DNA from: Escherichia coli
GTDB taxonomy: Bacteria > Pseudomonadota > Gammaproteobacteria > Enterobacterales > Enterobacteriaceae
Direction: 5' to 3' (one strand)
DNA: 64,000 nucleotides
Assembly: GCF_050920415.1 (NCBI RefSeq)
Contig: NZ_CP169309.1
Below, one piece after another: positions 14,354 through 44,888 of the stretch; position 1 is the stretch's first letter, and every line of letters starts with the position of its first letter. The position numbers and the translations under genes were made by a program. Below the pieces are notes generated by a model, which worked only from the letters and a program-made list of their open reading frames with translations, ran no database searches and was not told the DNA's origin.

Positions 14354-14574
14354 GCTGCACCTCCGAGATGCTTCATGTTTTTTCCGGAGCGAAAGGCTAT
14401 AAGCGGCATACTGACGCGGTAATTACGGCCCAGCGGTTCACAAATCACCTTCTGACATTCACGGTCAACCAGGCTAACACGTAGAACATGCCCTGCAGGC
14501 GTGGTGTACCACTGACCCGGTCGAGGACAACGGAAAGTCTGATTGGTAAACCGTTTGAAAATATTCCGGATCAT
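14350..14574 (-). CDS. Hypothetical small protein
   Basis: 74-aa ORF overlapping its neighbours' ends in operon; no motif recognised. Confidence 0.4.
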   Translation of the reverse strand: MIRNIFKRFTNQTFRCPRPGQWYTTPAGHVLRVSLVDRECQKVICEPLGRNYRVSMPLIAFRSGKNMKHLGGAA

Positions 14575-15722
14575 TTGCGCCCCCTTACCTCGGAAGAGTT
14601 CAGCGACGAATGAATAAGACGGGCAAGAAATGCCGCATCGTTAATTCGGTCATACAGACTTACAGCCAGCGGTGATTCAGCTTTTTCCAGCATGGGATAA
14701 AGCTGCTGCAACCAGACCTGATGAATTGATGAAATGTAGGAATAGAGTACGCTGGCGTTATGTGCAACGTCGCTCGGTACAGCGGGCTTTGAAAGCTGTT
14801 TCTCCATCTGGTTAAAGGCATTGATGTATGCCTCTTTGAACTGGGCAGCACGTTTACCCGTGAAACCCATAGCAAGAAACGCAAAACCGTCGCGGGTTAT
14901 TTGATAGCAAGGTAGTTTGCGGCCTGTGCAATCGGTGTAATCACTCACCGAAAAATTGCGGGCAGTGAATGATGCGGAGCATTCAAGCGTGCGGATCTTT
15001 TTCAGTACATCGTCATGACGTTTGGAGAAGAAGTTGGCAACAGCCAGGGATGAAGTAACAGCCTGACCATCAACGATGGCAATTTCAGGTTGAGTGAGGG
15101 TTGGGATCGTAGCCATGATGGCAGCCTCTTTGGTGATTTTTAATAACTCACCACCAAGGCTTTCCACGACCTTATTGGTGGTGAGACGTACAGGGGTGGA
15201 AATACCGGTCACCAAAGAACCCGGCCCAACCGAAGTTGGCCCTGCACGCCCCACCATAATTTGGGCGTAATGCTGCTCATGACACAAAAAAACCGCAAGA
15301 GCGCGGTTGTGCGCTTTGGTGAATTCCGGGTTTCCACGCCCGGCACCCGCTTTATAAGGTGCCTGAACAGTGTAACGTCCCGGAATGGCAGAATCAATGT
15401 GCTGGTGGTCCTTCACACTCAACAAAATCACGCCTGAATTTCCACAAAGGGCTAAAGCACTCATGCGGGTAGTCTTTGCGAAGATAGATAACGCGCTGTG
15501 TTTCTGGCTCCCAACGAATAACATGAACATAAAGTCCTCTTCCGTCACGAAACCAGCGGTTAAGTTCCTGCACAACTCGCCCCCCACAGTCAGGTAAAGT
15601 TCTCTGTGGTTACTTACAGCCAGGAGATTTGGTAATCTGCATTCATGCCGTAACAACAGGTGTTCAGCGACGCTGACCACCAGCTGTTGCGACAAATGGT
15701 TATTTGCCGTTAAACTGTTCAT
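14571..15722 (-). CDS. Rha-family phage regulatory protein with about 200-aa N-terminal extension of unknown function
   Basis: C-terminal half from MATIPTLTQPEIAIVDGQAVTSSLAVANFFSKRHDDVLKKIRTLEC... is Rha-like; N-terminal half is in the same frame with no stop; ATG at 15722 overlaps the upstream TGA (ATGA); an internal ATG at 15116 has an AAGAGG RBS. Confidence 0.7.
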   Translation of the reverse strand: MNSLTANNHLSQQLVVSVAEHLLLRHECRLPNLLAVSNHRELYLTVGGELCRNLTAGFVTEEDFMFMLFVGSQKHSALSIFAKTTRMSALALCGNSGVILLSVKDHQHIDSAIPGRYTVQAPYKAGAGRGNPEFTKAHNRALAVFLCHEQHYAQIMVGRAGPTSVGPGSLVTGISTPVRLTTNKVVESLGGELLKITKEAAIMATIPTLTQPEIAIVDGQAVTSSLAVANFFSKRHDDVLKKIRTLECSASFTARNFSVSDYTDCTGRKLPCYQITRDGFAFLAMGFTGKRAAQFKEAYINAFNQMEKQLSKPAVPSDVAHNASVLYSYISSIHQVWLQQLYPMLEKAESPLAVSLYDRINDAAFLARLIHSSLNSSEVRGRK

Positions 15723-16282
15723 GCGTTAGTTTCTCCACAGACACAAAACGCCACGACGCCCGGAGCTGCACACTCGCGGGCGTCACTCTTTTCTGGAGCG
15801 CAAAAGATTTTGTAGACCAGTGCTGCATGCTCCTGGAGCTTCGAAATTGACAGATACAACTCATCATTAATTGCTGTCTGCTCGTGTGGCTCCACTACCC
15901 CATCTTCGATTGCCGAACGAATCTGCTTTGAGTAACTCCCGATCTGTTCGATGACTTCCAGCAGGCGCTGGTTTATATCGGCGTTCTCTACTTCCTCAAT
16001 TTCAGGAAGCGATACAAACACCCCACCAGCAGACTGTGCGACAGCATCCGCAATGTAGTGAGTGCCAGCCGCGCGCTGTAAAATCATTGCCCATCCCAGC
16101 GGGAAAATCTGATCGCCATCTGCACGAAGGCGGTTGAATAAAGCGTTCTCTGTTACATCCAGCCACTCAGCAGCTTCAGCGTAACCCCCCGGCAACGCCG
16201 CGATAGTTTTTCTGACAGCTTTCACGTACCACTCAGGCTGTTTTTCTACTTTCCAGTGATGCTTACCCACGGTTAGCCTCAT
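15719..16282 (-). CDS. YdaT-like / CII-position regulatory protein (putative)
   Basis: 187 aa immediately downstream of the Cro-like gene, as ydaT follows ydaS in Rac; family call is by position and loose similarity. Confidence 0.5.
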   Translation of the reverse strand: MRLTVGKHHWKVEKQPEWYVKAVRKTIAALPGGYAEAAEWLDVTENALFNRLRADGDQIFPLGWAMILQRAAGTHYIADAVAQSAGGVFVSLPEIEEVENADINQRLLEVIEQIGSYSKQIRSAIEDGVVEPHEQTAINDELYLSISKLQEHAALVYKIFCAPEKSDARECAAPGVVAFCVCGETNA

Positions 16283-16313
16283 CGTTCTGTGGTTAAAAAT
16301 TAAAGGTGTTCTG

Positions 16314-16514
16314 TTAATCTTTCGGATAGATATCCGGTCTTAAGTCAGATTTCGTAATTGCACCTGACGTGCATTGCTCAAGTTTTTTAGCCAGCACAAA
16401 ACTGGCTTTTTTATAACCATTGAAAACCAGCCGTAAGTAGCCTGGTGTTGAGCCAACTTTTCCGGCCAACTCGCCCTGCTGTTCTTTGGTTAAAGAGTCC
16501 CAATACGCTTTCAT
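16314..16514 (-). CDS. Cro/YdaS-like HTH repressor
   Basis: 66 aa MKAYWDSLTKEQQGELAGKVGSTPGYLRLVFNGYKKASFVLAKKLEQCTSGAITKSDLRPDIYPKD; divergent from cI across the operator region. Confidence 0.75.
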   Translation of the reverse strand: MKAYWDSLTKEQQGELAGKVGSTPGYLRLVFNGYKKASFVLAKKLEQCTSGAITKSDLRPDIYPKD

Positions 16515-16604
16515 ACAATATGTACCTCTTATATACATATTACATGATTGAAATGAACCTTCAAGATACTTGTACCCTATCGGTACAAAGGTTTTAATTT
16601 CGTT
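16515..16604. promoter_or_regulatory. OR region: divergent pR/pRM promoters with at least two operator palindromes
   Basis: ATGTA-N9-TACAT at about 16520-16538 and TTGTA-N9-TACAA at about 16570-16588, between divergent cro and cI starts. Confidence 0.6.
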
Positions 16605-17279
16605 ATGAAAACAGTCCATGACATCCGGCGGTCTAACGCCAGAAAACTGAGAGATGGTGTTGGCGGGAATTCTTCCTTTGCCACCATGATTGATCGCGAA
16701 CCAACCCAGACCAGCAGGTTTATGGGAGATGGTGCTACTAAAAATATCGGTGACAGCATGGCACGGCACATCGAAAAATGTTTCGACCTGCCTGTCGGAT
16801 GGCTTGATCAAGAACACCAGACAACGAACATCACAAAAAAACCTGATGTTTCAATCACTAATAAACAAATAACGTTAGTCCCTGTCATATCATGGGTACA
16901 GGCCGGAGCATGGAAAGAAGTTGGCTATTCTGAGGTTGATTTGAGCACAACAGAAACATATCCCTGCCCTGTACCCTGTGGCGAAATGACTTATATATTG
17001 AGGGTGATTGGTGATTCAATGATTGATGAGTACCGTCCGGGGGACATGATTTTTGTCGATCCAGAAGTACCAGCCTGCCACGGCGATGACGTTATTGCAT
17101 TGATGCACGATACAGGTGAAACCACCTTCAAAAGGTTGATAGAAGACGGGACACAGCGTTATCTCAAAGCATTAAACCCCAACTGGCCTGAGCCTTACAT
17201 TAAGATAAACGGTAATTGCTCTATCATTGGTACAGTTATTTTCTCAGGAAAACCAAGAAGATACAAAATTAAAGCCTGA
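16605..17279 (+). CDS. cI: CI-type prophage repressor (HTH plus S24 peptidase/LexA-like autocleavage domain)
   Basis: 224 aa; C-terminal S24 domain with GDSM motif (YILRVIGDSMIDEYRPGDMIFVD). Confidence 0.9.
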   Translation: MKTVHDIRRSNARKLRDGVGGNSSFATMIDREPTQTSRFMGDGATKNIGDSMARHIEKCFDLPVGWLDQEHQTTNITKKPDVSITNKQITLVPVISWVQAGAWKEVGYSEVDLSTTETYPCPVPCGEMTYILRVIGDSMIDEYRPGDMIFVDPEVPACHGDDVIALMHDTGETTFKRLIEDGTQRYLKALNPNWPEPYIKINGNCSIIGTVIFSGKPRRYKIKA

Positions 17280-17292
17280 TCAATGTCTATGA

Positions 17293-17315
17293 ACCTGCTT
17301 CGGCAGGTTTTTTTA
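17293..17315 (+). terminator. Rho-independent terminator after cI
   Basis: CCTGC-ttcg-GCAGG followed by T7. Confidence 0.7.
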
Positions 17316-17318
17316 TAC

Positions 17319-17349
17319 TTGACAATGTACCATTAAGATACATAATGTA
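17319..17349 (+). promoter_or_regulatory. pL-like promoter overlapped by OL operators
   Basis: TTGACA (-35) at 17319-17324, CATAAT (-10) at about 17341-17346; same ATGTA-N9-TACAT operator as OR at 17325-17343 plus a half-site. Confidence 0.6.
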
Positions 17350-17474
17350 CCTGCATAAGATATCGAACAGGCAGGACGCCCACGAAGTAGCCGTCCGGGG
17401 CATACGAAGACCGGAATGGTTCGTAAATAAAAAAGCGCCCAAGTGGACGCTTCACTTTTGAACTGGATTTATAA

Positions 17475-17684
17475 TCAATTATTTTCTTCATAAATGTTTT
17501 GTAATGTATTTATGAGATTTGGTATTTCTTTTATGGGAAAAGAATATATTGGACTTTCGATAATTTTATCAGATTCAAATGGTGGTTGTTTGCAGGACAG
17601 TTGAACTATAACTGAATTATGATCTTTAACTGGCACACAGTACCAACCACATACATCAAAAACAGGAGTATTTTGATTATCCAT
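17475..17684 (-). CDS. Hypothetical small protein in AT-rich segment, convergent with pL transcription
   Basis: 69 aa from ATG with GAGGA RBS (MDNQNTPVFDVCGWYCVPVKDH...); markedly AT-rich. Confidence 0.4.
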   Translation of the reverse strand: MDNQNTPVFDVCGWYCVPVKDHNSVIVQLSCKQPPFESDKIIESPIYSFPIKEIPNLINTLQNIYEENN

Positions 17685-18528
17685 TATGTCCTCGACAACT
17701 AAAAACACTGCGTACAAACCTCAAAAGCAGGGAGTTATTTATAAAATTTCATAAAGAATAATTACTGATAGCGACAATTCATTGTTCTTGAATTTTGAAA
17801 AATAGCAAGACAAAACAATGTAAACTTATTTAAGAAAAGTTCTTATTATGTAAACAAAACAACCAATTCGTTATATAGGAAAAACAAATAGTACGCAAGA
17901 AAATATTCAACAGGGGTATTACATTCAACCATAAGAGTAATCGTCTCTTTGGTAACTAATACCGAACATTTTATTGTAACACGTCGTATGGCACATGCGT
18001 CGTTAGCGGTCTGGGGACGTTAAAGGGGACAATCCACTCCTTGCTCGGGCAAACAAACCAGGTAGCCGGAATGTGCAAGTCAATGATGATGCTGATAAGA
18101 CGCCTAACCAGCGTGGCGATCCGGTTTGACGCCTGGGAAGAGACCAGGGTGCAACGATGAGGGCATTTATGGAGCCGCGACAAAGTGTGGTGCCATAACT
18201 GGCTAAGTGCTCTCAGCGTTGTGGTAATCCGCGAAATGGCGCGGCGGTAAGTATGGCGGGGTTACTCTTTCCCCGTTGAGGACACCGGATTGTCAGGTTG
18301 ACCATACGCCTGAGTGACAACCCCACCACAACAGCCACTGCTTTGGCGGTACCAGCTTGTACCCTTGCTTCCGGCTGGTACCGTCCTTTTTACAAAACAG
18401 AGAAGAGCATCACCGGACGACGGGCTCATAACCCAATCCATCCGGGCGGCTGCCACCGCAGGTGTTCTTCTCTGTTTTGTGGAGAAACCAACCGGCCTTG
18501 CAGGGTCGATATGATGAGGAGCAGCAAA

Positions 18529-18891
18529 ATGGCTAGCGAACGCAGTACTGATGTGCAGGCATTTATCGGGGAGCTGGACGGCGGCGTATTTGAAACCAAA
18601 ATCGGCGCAGTTCTCAGTGAAGTCGCTTCCGGTGTGATGAACACGAAAACCAAAGGTAAGGTCTCACTCAACCTGGAAATCGAACCATTTGATGAGAACC
18701 GTGTGAAAATCAAACACAAACTCTCATATGTTCGCCCGACTAACCGCGGGAAAATTTCCGAAGAAGACACCACCGAAACGCCGATGTATGTCAATCGCGG
18801 TGGTCGCCTGACTATTCTGCAGGAAGACCAGGGACAATTACTGACTCTTGCCGGTGAACCTGACGGAAAACTCCGCGCAGCAGGTCATTAA
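18529..18891 (+). CDS. YfdP-like early-left-operon protein
   Basis: 120 aa from ATG with GAGGAG RBS (MASERSTDVQAFIGELDGGVFETKIGAV...); followed by YfdQ/YfdR-like genes as in CPS-53. Confidence 0.6.
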   Translation: MASERSTDVQAFIGELDGGVFETKIGAVLSEVASGVMNTKTKGKVSLNLEIEPFDENRVKIKHKLSYVRPTNRGKISEEDTTETPMYVNRGGRLTILQEDQGQLLTLAGEPDGKLRAAGH

Positions 18892-18956
18892 TATCGTTCT
18901 TAATTAACTGATTATTTATCTCATCACTGAATATCTTTATATAGTGAGGACTTATT

Positions 18957-19781
18957 ATGTCTCAGAACTTAGACGCAACCGCAATTAATCAAATCCATGC
19001 CCTTATTTCTGCTCAGGGTGTTAATGAAATTATCAGTAAGATTGGTGCCGATGCTGTGGCATTGCCTGAGAATTTCCGCATTCATGATCTGGAAAAATTT
19101 AATTTAAATCGCTTCCGTTTCCGTGGTGCGCTTTCCACTGCCAGCATCGATGACTTTACCCGTTATTCTAAAGATCTTGCAGATGAAGGCACCCGCTGCT
19201 TTATCGATGCTGATAATATGCGTGCCGTCAGTGTGCTTAACCTGGGTACTATTGATGAACCAGGTCACGCAGATAACACCGCCACTCTCAAACTGAAAAA
19301 GACAGCACCGTTCTCTGCCCTGTTGTATGTTAACGGCGAGCGTAACTCCCAGAAGTCACTGGCAGAATGGATTGAAGACTGGGCCGACTATCTTGTGGGC
19401 TTTGATGCTAATGGTGACACCATTCAGGCAACAAAAGCGGCTGCGGCGGTCCGTAAAATCACGATTGAAGCAAACCAGACCGCTGATTTTGAAGATAATG
19501 ACTTCAGCGGCAAACGCTCCCTGATGGAGTCTGTCGAAGCGAAGACCAAAGACATTATGCCAGTGGCATTTGAATTTAAATGCGTTCCGTTTGAAGGTCT
19601 GAAAGAACGTCCGTTTAAATTACGCCTCAGCATTATCACTGGCGATCGTCCTGTACTGGTTCTGCGCATTATTCAGCTGGAAGCGGTGCAGGAAGATATG
19701 GCTAACGAATTTCGTGATCTGCTTGTTGAGAAATTCAAGGACAGCAAAGTAGAAACCTTTATTGGTACTTTCACCGCCTGA
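18957..19781 (+). CDS. YfdQ-like protein (DUF2303)
   Basis: 274-aa ORF with strong RBS; recalled as CPS-53 YfdQ-like. Confidence 0.75.
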
Positions 19782-43418: not shown

Positions 43419-44888
43419 TTATGCTTCTTCAGGTTTGGTGATCACGACACTCTGGTTTTCACGCTCATTGGTGATAATAGCCAAAGCTTCTTCCCGGCTG
43501 ACCTGACTTGCTGGCGTTACCAACGTCACCAGTACGCCAGCGACCAGGCTGCCCAGCACTGACGGAATACACGGGTTACCCCAGTAAGCCAGCCAGTCGG
43601 CATTCATCAGCACCACAATTGACATCACCATACCGCTCACTAACGCCGCCAGCGCGCCCTGCCAGTTAAAGCGTAGCCAGAAGCGACCGAGAATCGAGCA
43701 GATAAACAGCCCGGACATCAGCATCGAAATCATTTTGGTAATGTAGCTGATGATGTCATTAGAGGTCAGAGCAAAGACCAGCGCCAGGCCAATAACAAAG
43801 GTCAACATCCAGCGTGAGTAAGTAATGGCCTTGTCCTCCGGCGGCATTCTGCCGGTAATCATGGTGTAGACGTCGCGCATCATAATCGCCACTGCCGCAA
43901 TGGCATCAGAACTGGCAGAAGACATGGTGGCAGAAAGCCCGGCAATCAGCACCACCAGCCCAAGAATGGCAGGTAAGAAGCTGGTCGCGAACAAGAAGGC
44001 ATAGTTACTGTTTTCCAGATTCGGGTTCATGGTGAACGCCGCCATGCCGATAATGGCAGGCAGAATCGAGAAGAACAGATACAACACGCCAGTAATAACA
44101 AATGAACGCCGTACAGAGGGAACGTCTTTTCCCGAGTAAATACGCTGGCGATAAGATGGTGTGGCCAGTACGCCGACACCAATAACCAGCGCCAGCGAAA
44201 GCGCAGGCAGCACGCCCATTTTATCAATCGCAAACAGGCTCATCGCTTTTGGGTCCATCGCCTGCTCAATCGCACTCCAGCCACCAACGTGAACAACGGC
44301 AAGAATAGCCATTAATATAAAGCCAAAGAACAGAATTAGGGCCTGAATGGTATCGGTCCACACTACCGCCGAATAACCGCCGATAATAACGTAAATCGCA
44401 AAAGCTAAGGCAATAATTAATTTTGCCACCGTAAGATCAATACCTGTTGCCCAGGCAAGATACATACTTCCACCTAATATATGCGCCCCCAGCCAGCCAA
44501 TAGAGGCAATAAATATCATCATGCCGACAATGTTTTTAATTAAATGACTGCCGCCAGTATAATAAGATATTTCTTCACTCATGGTCATAAAACGTAATTT
44601 ACGTACCGGTGCAAACAGCCACGCCACCAGTAATATACCTACGGCCCCACCGACGCCATAAAGCATTCCGGCCCAGCCATTGCTGTAGCCAAAGCCCACT
44701 GCGCCCATACTGGAACCCGTGCCAACCATCGTGGCAACGGTTGACCCCAGCGTCAGAAACAGCGGCAGCGAACGCCCGCCCAGCAGAAAATCTTCTCCGC
44801 TTTTCTGATTACGAGAAACAAACCAACCAAGCCAAATCATGGCGATGGCATAAATAATAAAGCCGACTAAAAAGATATGACTGTTCAT
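43419..44888 (-). CDS. Sodium:solute symporter (SSS) family transporter
   Basis: 489 aa, about 13 TM, SSS-like N-terminal pattern (GGRSLPLFLTLGSTVATMVGTGSSMG). Confidence 0.8.
   Translation of the reverse strand: MNSHIFLVGFIIYAIAMIWLGWFVSRNQKSGEDFLLGGRSLPLFLTLGSTVATMVGTGSSMGAVGFGYSNGWAGMLYGVGGAVGILLVAWLFAPVRKLRFMTMSEEISYYTGGSHLIKNIVGMMIFIASIGWLGAHILGGSMYLAWATGIDLTVAKLIIALAFAIYVIIGGYSAVVWTDTIQALILFFGFILMAILAVVHVGGWSAIEQAMDPKAMSLFAIDKMGVLPALSLALVIGVGVLATPSYRQRIYSGKDVPSVRRSFVITGVLYLFFSILPAIIGMAAFTMNPNLENSNYAFLFATSFLPAILGLVVLIAGLSATMSSASSDAIAAVAIMMRDVYTMITGRMPPEDKAITYSRWMLTFVIGLALVFALTSNDIISYITKMISMLMSGLFICSILGRFWLRFNWQGALAALVSGMVMSIVVLMNADWLAYWGNPCIPSVLGSLVAGVLVTLVTPASQVSREEALAIITNERENQSVVITKPEEA

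Follow-up and report, generated by a model that had tools for sequence, protein, structure and literature searches.

We analysed a 64,000-nucleotide stretch of Escherichia coli DNA (the window) in which two regulatory genes are transcribed divergently across a 90-bp gap containing three 19-bp sites. The cro-like gene (16314–16514, minus strand), whose ORF and start codon were read from the sequence, encodes a 66-aa protein of the ymfT/croE type with a YdaS-family HTH (Pfam YdaS_toxin, 1.5e-5; HTH_3, 0.0065; PHROG 35, transcriptional repressor, 3e-15), and PGAP calls this gene ymfT in near-identical E. coli genomes. The cI gene (16605–17279, plus strand) encodes a 224-aa repressor with an N-terminal HTH domain and a C-terminal S24 self-cleaving domain, as in lambdoid repressors. 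It is followed by an intrinsic terminator (17291–17316, plus strand; an 8-bp stem and then a T run), which is an annotated terminator in phages SfV and Ayreon, and by a pL-like promoter. Because the cI stop codon and the −35 element of this promoter are just 39 nt apart, no gene lies between them, in agreement with the initial annotation, which had noted the lack of a rexAB-like gene at this position. This absence is unremarkable, as pL directly follows cI in HK022 as well.

The initial annotation had also described a palindrome, ATGTA-N9-TACAT, shared by the cro–cI gap and the promoter beyond cI. Exact copies were found at 16520–16538 (ATGTACCTCTTATATACAT) and 17325–17343 (ATGTACCATTAAGATACAT) and nowhere else in the window, whereas shuffled windows contained 0.04 matches on average and none of 100 shuffles contained two. 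The extended consensus of the predicted repressor sites was ATGTACC-N5-GGTACAT (19 bp, arranged 7-5-7), and PWM ranks 1 to 4 across the 64 kb were all occupied by sites in two short promoter regions. A loose search (ATGTAC-N7-GTACAT with up to three mismatches) returned 18 positions against 20.8 expected, which is the chance level; we therefore assessed weak sites by position, PWM score, and conservation instead of by count. In total, three sites were assigned to OR (16520–16538, 16553–16571, and 16570–16588) and two to OL (17325–17343 and 17345–17363). The two palindromes noted earlier between cro and cI correspond to the first and last of the OR sites, and their number has to be revised since a third, degenerate site lies at 16553–16571.

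The first predicted OR operator, O1 (16520–16538), scored 22.0 bits, the second-highest PWM score of the window. Within it lie the predicted pR start, the Shine-Dalgarno sequence of cro, and 2 nt of the pR −10. As read from the sequence, pR (16537–16564, minus strand) consists of a −35 TTGAAG (16559–16564), a 16-nt spacer, and a −10 TAATAT (16537–16542), with a start near 16530. Because its match to the sigma-70 consensus (8/12) falls under the threshold of the promoter scan, we infer this promoter from its elements; the TTG of the −35 is retained in related phages (TTGCAG in EPP-1 and TTGACG in CF67a), and the −10 variants among related loci retain positions 1, 2, and 6. O2 (ATGAACCTTCAAGATACTT; 16553–16571), a degenerate predicted operator, has its centre on the pR −35, with the cI start codon about 43 nt downstream. 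Scored with a PWM built from the other sites only, it reached 9.7 bits and rank 4 in the window, and about 1.2 such sites per 64 kb occurred in shuffled sequence. O3 (TTGTACCCTATCGGTACAA; 16570–16588), with two mismatches to ATGTAC-N7-GTACAT and a score of 21.6 bits, covers the −35 and the spacer of a predicted pRM-like promoter (16570–16598, plus strand; −35 TTGTAC at 16570–16575, 17-nt spacer, −10 TTTAAT at 16593–16598). This promoter, likewise read from the sequence and proposed by analogy with lambda pRM, is a weak match (8/12) that the promoter scan did not call; a cI mRNA started from it would be almost leaderless. O2 shares 2 nt with O3, and their centres are 17 bp apart, so that their simultaneous occupancy is uncertain.

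A second early promoter beyond cI carries the same type of operator in two predicted sites (17325–17363). The pL-like promoter (17319–17346, plus strand) has a TTGACA (17319–17324), a 16-nt spacer, and a CATAAT (17341–17346); with 11 of 12 consensus positions, it was the best promoter within 15600–19000. Its position is that of an annotated promoter in phage Ayreon, and the TTGACA–OL1–OL2 layout is repeated in Edwardsiella phage EPP-1 and in e14 of K-12. OL1 (17325–17343) is the top-scoring PWM site of the window (23.4 bits). The palindrome had been reported to overlap both promoter elements; the overlap with the −10 stands (3 nt), but the −35 is merely abutted, with OL1 filling the 16-nt spacer. 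OL2 (ATGTACCTGCATAAGATAT; 17345–17363) lies over the predicted pL start, near 17353, and its left half is perfect while its right half is poor in the window. In relatives, the right half is better in the same register (ATGTATCTATAGGATACAT and ATGTACCCAAGAGAAACAA; ATGTACTTATAAGATACAC in EPP-1).

We next consider the protein presumed to read these sites. The cI product matched Peptidase_S24 (1.3e-26), and its C-terminal domain matched that of lambda CI (1.9e-9), with TFKRLI aligned to lambda TFKKLI; the G of VQAG and the S of GDSM were invariant in an alignment of five repressors. A Pfam search with the N-terminal domain alone returned nothing up to E = 10, and its homology was therefore drawn from searches by PDB profile and by fold. 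The profile search identified SPC32H Rep (5d50; E 1.6e-9), and the AF2 model of the domain (pLDDT 91.5) superimposed on 5d50 with TM scores of 0.81–0.83 (35–36% identity), followed by 434/XRE folds. The DNA-binding domain is thus homologous to those of SPC32H Rep (PDB 5D50) and Gifsy-type repressors. SPC32H Rep is not known to have a domain for self-cleavage, its inactivation being the work of an antirepressor; cI was not assigned to this antirepressor-controlled group, as the window protein contains a complete S24 domain.

Comparison with related phages provided further views of the sites. Among 80 IMG/VR loci with a nearly identical repressor (29 OR and 28 OL haplotypes), all common polymorphisms were confined to the site centres and to positions immediately flanking the sites, leaving the 6–7-nt arms invariant; this pattern of invariant arms and variable centres held for O1 and O3 in the OR haplotypes and for OL1 in the OL haplotypes. 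O2 was nearly invariant, with 3 hypervariable nucleotides immediately before it. In phages 689R6 and F1055, the flanking DNA is shared but the repressors differ, and so do the palindromes (of the ACTAAG..CTTAGT and TTGCGCAA types), which occupy both the cro–cI gap and the pL spacer. Conversely, phages whose repressors share the N-terminal domain (identity to cI 58% in Pseudomonas phage CF67a, 54% in Pseudomonas phage D14E, and 66% in EPP-1) have an OR of the same three-site layout with TGTAC-N7-GTACA sites, and the more distant relatives CharmingMan and H-19B have different repeats. Together, these comparisons demonstrate at the sequence level that the sites are non-random, are under purifying selection exactly at the half-site positions, change with the repressor, and travel with its N-terminal domain. 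The earlier suggestion that a common OR/OL operator sets the immunity type is thus supported by all of the comparative tests, namely the footprint, the module swap, and the co-inheritance with the DNA-binding domain.

We weighed three other readings of the sites. It is unlikely that only O1, O3, and OL1 are operators and that O2 and OL2 are promoter elements resembling half-sites by chance. The coincidence of the O2 centre with the pR −35 would explain part of its conservation, and the poor right half of OL2 is matched in score by 13 positions of the window. However, the outer arm of O2, ATGAAC, falls outside the −35 and is nevertheless invariant, with the 3 nt before it hypervariable, and EPP-1 keeps O2 almost letter for letter in the same place (ATGAACCTGCAAGATACTT) while the neighbouring spacer has diverged. 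The left arm of OL2, for its part, is perfect over 7 nt and keeps the same register, with 1 bp between it and OL1, whether in E. coli, in K-12, or in Edwardsiella. CharmingMan, a related member of the repressor family, also has three sites at OR and two at OL, in this case of the form TTACC-N4-GGTAA.

Quite unlikely, in our estimation, is a reading in which the palindromes are bound mainly by the Cro-like protein (YmfT/CroE type), or some of them by Cro alone, with CI using a subset. The Cro-like product is an HTH protein and is also homologous in the motif-keeping Pseudomonas phage CF67a (33% identity), thereby co-varying with the sites as well as CI does; because Cro travels with CI, comparison does not tell which sites belong to CI and which to Cro. 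On the other hand, motif-keeping phages all have exactly the predicted recognition helix of CI, PTQxSR, which is altered in phages that have lost or lack the motif, and the OL sites follow cI, where repression of pL by CI is the classical need. To our knowledge, CI and Cro use the same sites in every lambdoid switch studied (lambda, 434, and P22), which also counts against this reading; it would in any case refine rather than replace the model of repressor operators. Finally, the view that the palindromes arose by chance or are GTAC sites of the restriction type, and regulate nothing, has only the shortness of the TGTAC core in its favour. It is effectively refuted by the excess of exact copies, the confinement of the top four PWM positions of 64 kb to two promoter regions, the footprint of selection, and the way in which the sites covary with the repressor. 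The palindromes are therefore almost certainly, as judged from these sequence data, the binding sites of the repressor of an e14/SfV-type prophage switch, an ordinary type that is common in E. coli.

The assignment to the e14/SfV group follows from the repressor and its sites. The window cI is identical at 222 of 224 residues to YmfK, the e14 prophage repressor of E. coli K-12, and 99.6% identical to SfV CI; identical operator half-sites in the same layout were found in e14, SfV, Ayreon, and the 80 IMG/VR loci. The "putative operator region" in the SfV GenBank record corresponds exactly to 16520–16588 of the window, beginning with the first base of O1 and ending with the last base of O3. Given the near-identity to YmfK and this annotated region, the switch was already known, though as a prediction only. 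For e14, Mehta, Casjens and Krishnaswamy reportedly predicted repressor and Cro binding sites from the similarity to SfV (BMC Microbiol, 2004). Our literature search, which covered papers other than the SfV genome and e14 analysis papers, found no binding, footprinting, or reporter study of YmfK or SfV CI. O1, O2, O3, pL, OL1, OL2, and the leader RNA described below are common to e14, SfV, and the window, which differs from them by a few substitutions in the site centres and by the weaker right half of OL2. Of 5,426 complete E. coli genomes, about 2,000 carry this immunity region, which is also present in Stx2c- and CDT-converting phages.

Together, these results indicate that the region is very probably a lambdoid prophage immunity (lysis/lysogeny) switch of the e14/SfV type. 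In this model, a repressor dimer with an XRE/434-like HTH N-terminal domain and a LexA/lambda-CI-like self-cleaving C-terminal domain would recognise the 19-bp ATGTACC-N5-GGTACAT. At OR, O1 would lie on the pR start, O2 on the pR −35, and O3 on the cI promoter, at its −35 and spacer; at OL, OL1 would fill the spacer of the leftward early promoter and OL2 would cover its start. Repressor bound to these sites in a lysogen would keep pR and pL off and maintain cI expression, with O2 at the position from which lambda CI activates pRM. DNA damage would lead to RecA-stimulated self-cleavage of the repressor and to derepression of both operons. The sites and the N-terminal domain would define the immunity type because a superinfecting phage with the same sites would also be shut off. 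Which protein binds, the positions of pR and pRM, activation from O2, and cooperativity are points that we infer. A K-12 iModulon groups ymfJ, ymfH, xisE, and intE, to the left of ymfK, and ymfT, ymfL, ymfM, and ymfN, to its right, with sulA and recN (PMC12133099), a membership that fits joint SOS-dependent derepression of both sides.

The proposed switch resembles that of lambda in its divergent cI and cro genes, tripartite OR, repetition of the operator type at pL, and S24 self-cleaving repressor domain. The site about 43 nt upstream of the cI start and the predicted nearly leaderless cI mRNA are lambda-like as well, the former being comparable to lambda OR2 at −42. In contrast, the window sites are 19 bp (7-5-7) rather than 17 bp, OL contains two sites rather than three, O2 and O3 overlap, and OL1 sits in the promoter spacer. 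The window also has neither rexAB nor N, and the N-terminal domain of its repressor has no detectable sequence similarity to that of lambda CI. Since the spacings (33 bp for O1–O2, 17 bp for O2–O3, and 20 bp for OL1–OL2) are unlike the 23–24 bp of lambda and unequal to one another, pairwise cooperativity in the style of lambda is no simple assumption. HK022 OL shares its hexamer arms with the window (ATGTAC...GTACTT and ATGAAC...GTACAT), but its sites are 17 bp, with N5 between the hexamers instead of N7. HK022 CI was ruled out as a relative that would explain the common arms, as its N-terminal domain showed no sequence similarity and gave no alignment.

Directly downstream of OL2, we identified a conserved structured leader RNA of the predicted pL transcript (65 nt; 17362–17426, plus strand), comprising a closing stem (P1), a small hairpin, a second hairpin (P2), and invariant unpaired stretches. 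The window scored 84.8 bits with its covariance model, R1. In an alignment of 40 sequences, 96.7% of the cells were paired, compared with 27–47% in slid controls, nine pairs had changed on both sides, and RNAalifold recovered the same helices. The structure emerged from the alignment only; folding the pL leader as a single sequence gave no signal (z = 0.09). Neither a 5-kb scan nor a permissive 151-nt scan against Rfam gave a match, and a literature search for the core sequence found no paper. Among complete E. coli genomes, 34% have the leader RNA, K-12 being one of them (NC_000913.3 1202111–1202176, upstream of ymfJ); it has never been annotated and is preceded by about 50 different operator/promoter types. 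On this evidence, the 65-nt leader is an undescribed, strongly covarying predicted structure.

Its position recalls that of HK022 putL, a structured cis-acting RNA directly after pL (PMC9378689). P1 begins about 10 nt past the predicted pL start, and as with put, a structured RNA of about 70 nt follows pL; in some loci with HK022-type operators, the 65-nt RNA takes the position of putL. The two differ in architecture, put being two adjacent stem-loops with no closing stem and the leader RNA a closing stem with two hairpins, and membership of putL in the same RNA family was ruled out because R1 found nothing in the HK022 pL–cro region. A second put site follows pR in HK022, but the leader RNA occurs only once in the window: no putR analogue was found in the 64 kb, where the next R1 match (15.5 bits, at 44198) lay outside the early region. 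In HK022, put RNA acts in cis to let transcription read through terminators and needs no protein factor to do so. Phages of the e14/SfV type have been reported to have no N gene (PMC3851460), and a terminator-like hairpin follows the leader RNA in many loci, the window among them. We tentatively suggest, as a possible though rather doubtful function, that the leader RNA (the first 75 nt of the pL transcript, with three helices) acts in cis, with the transcribing polymerase or a host or phage factor as its target, so that early-left transcription passes terminators and reaches xis/int; it would then be a functional putL analogue of a structurally new class. Such read-through would explain why the RNA is intact behind some 50 operator/promoter modules, why it replaces putL behind HK022-type operators, and why terminator-like hairpins follow it.

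For the operators, little is new beyond the assignment of this prophage to the e14/SfV immunity group, but the predicted site model (7-5-7 consensus, three OR and two OL sites, and the PTQxSR recognition helix) is sharper than the database records. In view of the wide spread of the region in E. coli genomes and in Stx2c and CDT phages, a correct operator model would be useful for predicting superinfection immunity, and also the SOS-dependent induction of YmfM, the division inhibitor of e14, and of these toxin phages. The leader RNA matters more than the operators: a third of E. coli genomes have this covarying, unannotated element at the 5′ end of the early-left transcript, it is open to direct tests in K-12, and it may be relevant to how lambdoid phages without N transcribe past early terminators. 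In the window, an insert of about 530 bp with an orphan ORF in reverse orientation separates the leader RNA from the early-left genes that come next; e14, SfV, and Ayreon lack it.

Searching the window for exact matches to ATGTA-N9-TACAT returned only 16520-16538 and 17325-17343 (0.04 expected), confirming the proposal in the initial annotation that one palindrome is shared by OR, the operator region between cro and cI, and the leftward early promoter, pL. The cro-like gene (16314-16514, minus strand; 66 aa) is of the YdaS/HTH type (Pfam; PHROG 35). The cI repressor gene (16605-17279, plus strand) encodes a 224-aa protein that carries a Peptidase_S24 domain (Pfam, 1.3e-26) and aligns with the C-terminal domain of lambda CI. 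The repressor-gene terminator (17291-17310, a hairpin then a T run) is followed immediately by the strongest sigma-70 match within 15600-19000, a pL-like promoter at 17319-17346 (TTGACA, 16 nt, CATAAT; 11/12 match). As had been noted, the palindrome overlaps this promoter, and no rexAB-like gene separates cI from pL; such an absence is ordinary, since pL of HK022 also directly follows cI.

By reading the region and using a mismatch-tolerant pattern search, we identified five predicted operator sites: O1 (16520-38, ATGTACCTCTTATATACAT), O2 (16553-71, ATGAACCTTCAAGATACTT) and O3 (16570-88, TTGTACCCTATCGGTACAA) at OR, and OL1 (17325-43, ATGTACCATTAAGATACAT) and OL2 (17345-63, ATGTACCTGCATAAGATAT) at pL. 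The two OR palindromes and one pL site reported initially are thus present, but the actual count is three plus two, and ATGTACC-N5-GGTACAT is a better form of the motif. A position weight matrix (PWM) based only on the O1, O3 and OL1 arms placed these sites at ranks 1-3 across the window and O2 at rank 4, with 9.7 bits, a score reached in shuffles at ~1.2 positions per 64 kb; by the same matrix, the left arm of OL2 was perfect and its right arm poor. There is a 2-bp overlap between O2 and O3, and the sites are spaced by 33, 17 and 20 bp, so the lambda cooperativity rules are not transferable.

With only 8/12 matches each, we infer a rightward early promoter, pR (minus strand; -35 TTGAAG at 16559-64, 16-nt spacer, -10 TAATAT at 16537-42), and a cI promoter, pRM (-35 TTGTAC at 16570-75, 17-nt spacer, -10 TTTAAT at 16593-98). 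O1 would lie over the cro Shine-Dalgarno sequence and the predicted pR start, with O2 over the pR -35. At pRM, O3 would cover the -35 and spacer and O2 would be centred near -43; the cI mRNA from pRM would be nearly leaderless. In 80 IMG/VR loci with 99-100% identical repressors (29 OR and 28 OL haplotypes), the site arms (6-7 nt) were unchanged except for singletons. All common OR polymorphisms occurred at the O1 centre or O1 position 14 (A/G, where G gives a perfect palindrome), in the 3 nt immediately 5' of O2, at the O3 centre and at the base right after O3, with another 3 nt before the cI start; those in OL were confined to the OL1 and OL2 centres. Unlike the O1 and O3 centres, the O2 centre was conserved, consistent with its position over the pR -35.

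Comparison with related phages showed that the sites are kept or changed along with the repressor. In vB_EcoM-689R6 and F1055, the flanking DNA on both sides is that of the window but the repressors are different; their palindromes between cro and cI, of the ACTAAG..CTTAGT and TTGCGCAA types, recur beyond the repressor terminator, in the promoter spacer. In Edwardsiella phage EPP-1, whose N-terminal domain is 66% identical, GTGTACCTCCTAGATACAT, ATGAACCTGCAAGATACTT and TTGTACCAATTTGGTACAG stand at the window's spacings, and TTGACA+ATGTACCCATGCGGTACAT+A+ATGTACTTATAAGATACAC lies 3' of the terminator. In Pseudomonas phages CF67a and D14E, whose N-terminal domains are 58% and 54% identical and whose C-terminal parts differ, OR contains ATGTAC-N7-GTACAA, (A/G)TGTAC-CGTCAAG-GTTCTG and CTGTAC-N7-GTACAG with centres 35 and 16 bp apart, versus 33 and 17 bp in the window. 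In CharmingMan (36% identical), TTACC-N4-GGTAA is present in three copies at OR and in two beyond the terminator, and H-19B (42% identical) has TTATC/GATAA-type sites. The predicted recognition helix was PTQ(T/V/I)SR in every compared phage keeping TGTAC-N7-GTACA, and PSYVSR, PSQLTQ or VSQANQ in those without it. HK022 OL (minus strand, 820-880) has the hexamer arms ATGTAC/GTACAT and ATGAAC in common with the window sites; however, its sites are 17 bp with N5 between hexamers, unlike the window's, and the N-terminal domain of its CI has no sequence similarity to the window repressor. With site number and motif corrected, the way the predicted sites vary with the repressor supports the initial view that the operators define immunity specificity. 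After the CF67a repressor gene (2626-2690), we observed two CTGTATATACA(G/A) palindromes and no TGTAC-N7-GTACA sites; a different, perhaps LexA-box-like, element seems to control the leftward promoter of this phage, though its OR retains the motif.

Repressor residues 1-83 had no Pfam match. A profile of seven N-terminal domains matched that of SPC32H Rep (5D50) at 1.6e-9, and the AlphaFold model of the N-terminal domain (pLDDT 91.5, four helices) fitted 5D50 with a TM of 0.81-0.83, followed by the 434 repressor, C-proteins and XRE regulators (TM about 0.6-0.7). In this predicted structure, helix 33-40 occupies the recognition-helix position.

Together, the predicted sites make up a standard set of lambdoid operators belonging to the e14/SfV immunity type. 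Identity to the window is 94-96% in the cI-cro regions of SfV, SfIV, cdtI, Stx2c phages, Ayreon and 2H10, and RefSeq E. coli genomes name the two genes ymfK and ymfT. YmfK, the repressor of the K-12 cryptic prophage e14, is identical at 222/224 residues, and e14 contains all five sites. The "putative operator region" of the SfV GenBank record (locus positions 2821-2889) maps to 16520-16588, exactly O1 through O3, and the Ayreon record annotates the promoter following the terminator. Our literature search found no binding experiment on e14/SfV-type operators. A K-12 iModulon groups ymfJ, ymfH, xisE and intE, left of ymfK, and ymfT, ymfL, ymfM and ymfN, right of it, with sulA and recN (PMC12133099), which fits joint SOS-dependent derepression. 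Because public records already mark this operator set, which is very common in E. coli, it holds little interest in itself; what merits follow-up is the leader RNA next to it.

This 65-nt element after OL2 (17362-17426, plus strand), at the 5' end of the pL transcript, was matched at 85-100% identity by 45 phage records whose repressors differ, including ST64B, SfII, SEN34, mEp237, SPN3UB, Yersinia, Pantoea, Klebsiella and Citrobacter phages and, in part, Pectobacterium ZF40; none of the 45 annotates it. An IMG/VR pattern scan (at least 120 stretches) and other loci gave at least 146 copies with at least 93 distinct cores. About 50 different operator/promoter types, lambda-like and HK022-like ones included, preceded it among the matches listed, nearly all having a -35 of the TTGAC type and a palindromic spacer sequence. 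A covariance model located a single window copy at 84.8 bits, matched SfV, 689R6 and F1055, and scored 75.6 bits in e14 between ymfK and ymfJ, upstream of ymfJ (NC_000913.3 1202111-1202176). BLAST located the element in 1,864/5,426 complete E. coli genomes, K-12 included, with no annotation beneath; Rfam gave no match, and no paper containing the core was found.

In a 40-sequence alignment, helices P1 (columns 2-6 with 60-64) and P2 (columns 33-37 with 50-55) were 94% and 98.5% paired, respectively, and 9/10 pairs changed on both sides (e.g., GCGAA/UUCGC, CCACC/GGUGG, UCAUC/GAUGA). Overall, 96.7% of cells were paired versus 27-47% with partners slid, 0/500 shuffles reached the covariation score, and RNAalifold returned identical helices. 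The 19-nt core is invariant by construction because it was the search seed, of which the helices were not part. G-U pairs occurred only in the pL sense, indicating that the transcript is the structured strand.

N is reported to be missing from SfV-type phages (PMC3851460), the cis-acting antiterminator putL of HK022 lies at a matching position (PMC9378689), and a terminator-like hairpin follows the element in many loci (17432-17453 in the window), making a put-like antiterminator role one reasonable hypothesis. The covariance model had no match in HK022, and the element did not pass the tests for put family membership. In some IMG/VR phages, the 65-nt RNA occupies the putL position behind HK022-type operators. 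A weak model match at 44198-44250 (plus strand; 15.5 bits, E about 0.01) has CAGGCAGCACGCCCA in common, lies outside the early region and is probably due to chance.

Compared with e14, SfV and Ayreon, the window has a variable insert downstream (17427-17960); the scan scored the hairpin in it (17432-17453) as a terminator on the minus strand only. The insert encodes an AT-rich 80-aa ORF (17475-17717, minus strand) matching neither Pfam nor PHROG, which pL transcription would traverse antisense. A conserved non-coding segment at about 17965-18300 (GTAACACG.CGTATGGCACATGCGTCGTTAGCGGTCTGGGGACG...), with no Rfam match, adjoins OL2 directly in Ayreon-type phages of the same immunity, stands before the 65-nt RNA in SfII-type loci and has a possible 10-bp hairpin (ACGGCGUAUG-GCA-CAUGCGUCGU) in relatives; it may be a second leader module.

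Downstream of cro, a ymfL-like gene (15719-16282, minus strand) matched Phage_CP76 (CII; 8.5e-15) and, at 5e-73, PHROG 101, "CII-like transcriptional activator"; SfV/SfIV-type phages are described in the SfIV paper as lacking cII. Rfam matches to C4 antisense RNA (83.6 bits) and isrK (67 bits), with a weak c4 target match, lie at 15174-15375 (minus strand) inside a 383-aa ORF (14571-15722, minus strand), upstream of its Ash/Rha-domain part. Beside the CI/Cro switch, this stretch looks like an antirepressor control module of the P1 immI/Gifsy-1 isrK type, and the 5' end of the ORF is probably over-extended.
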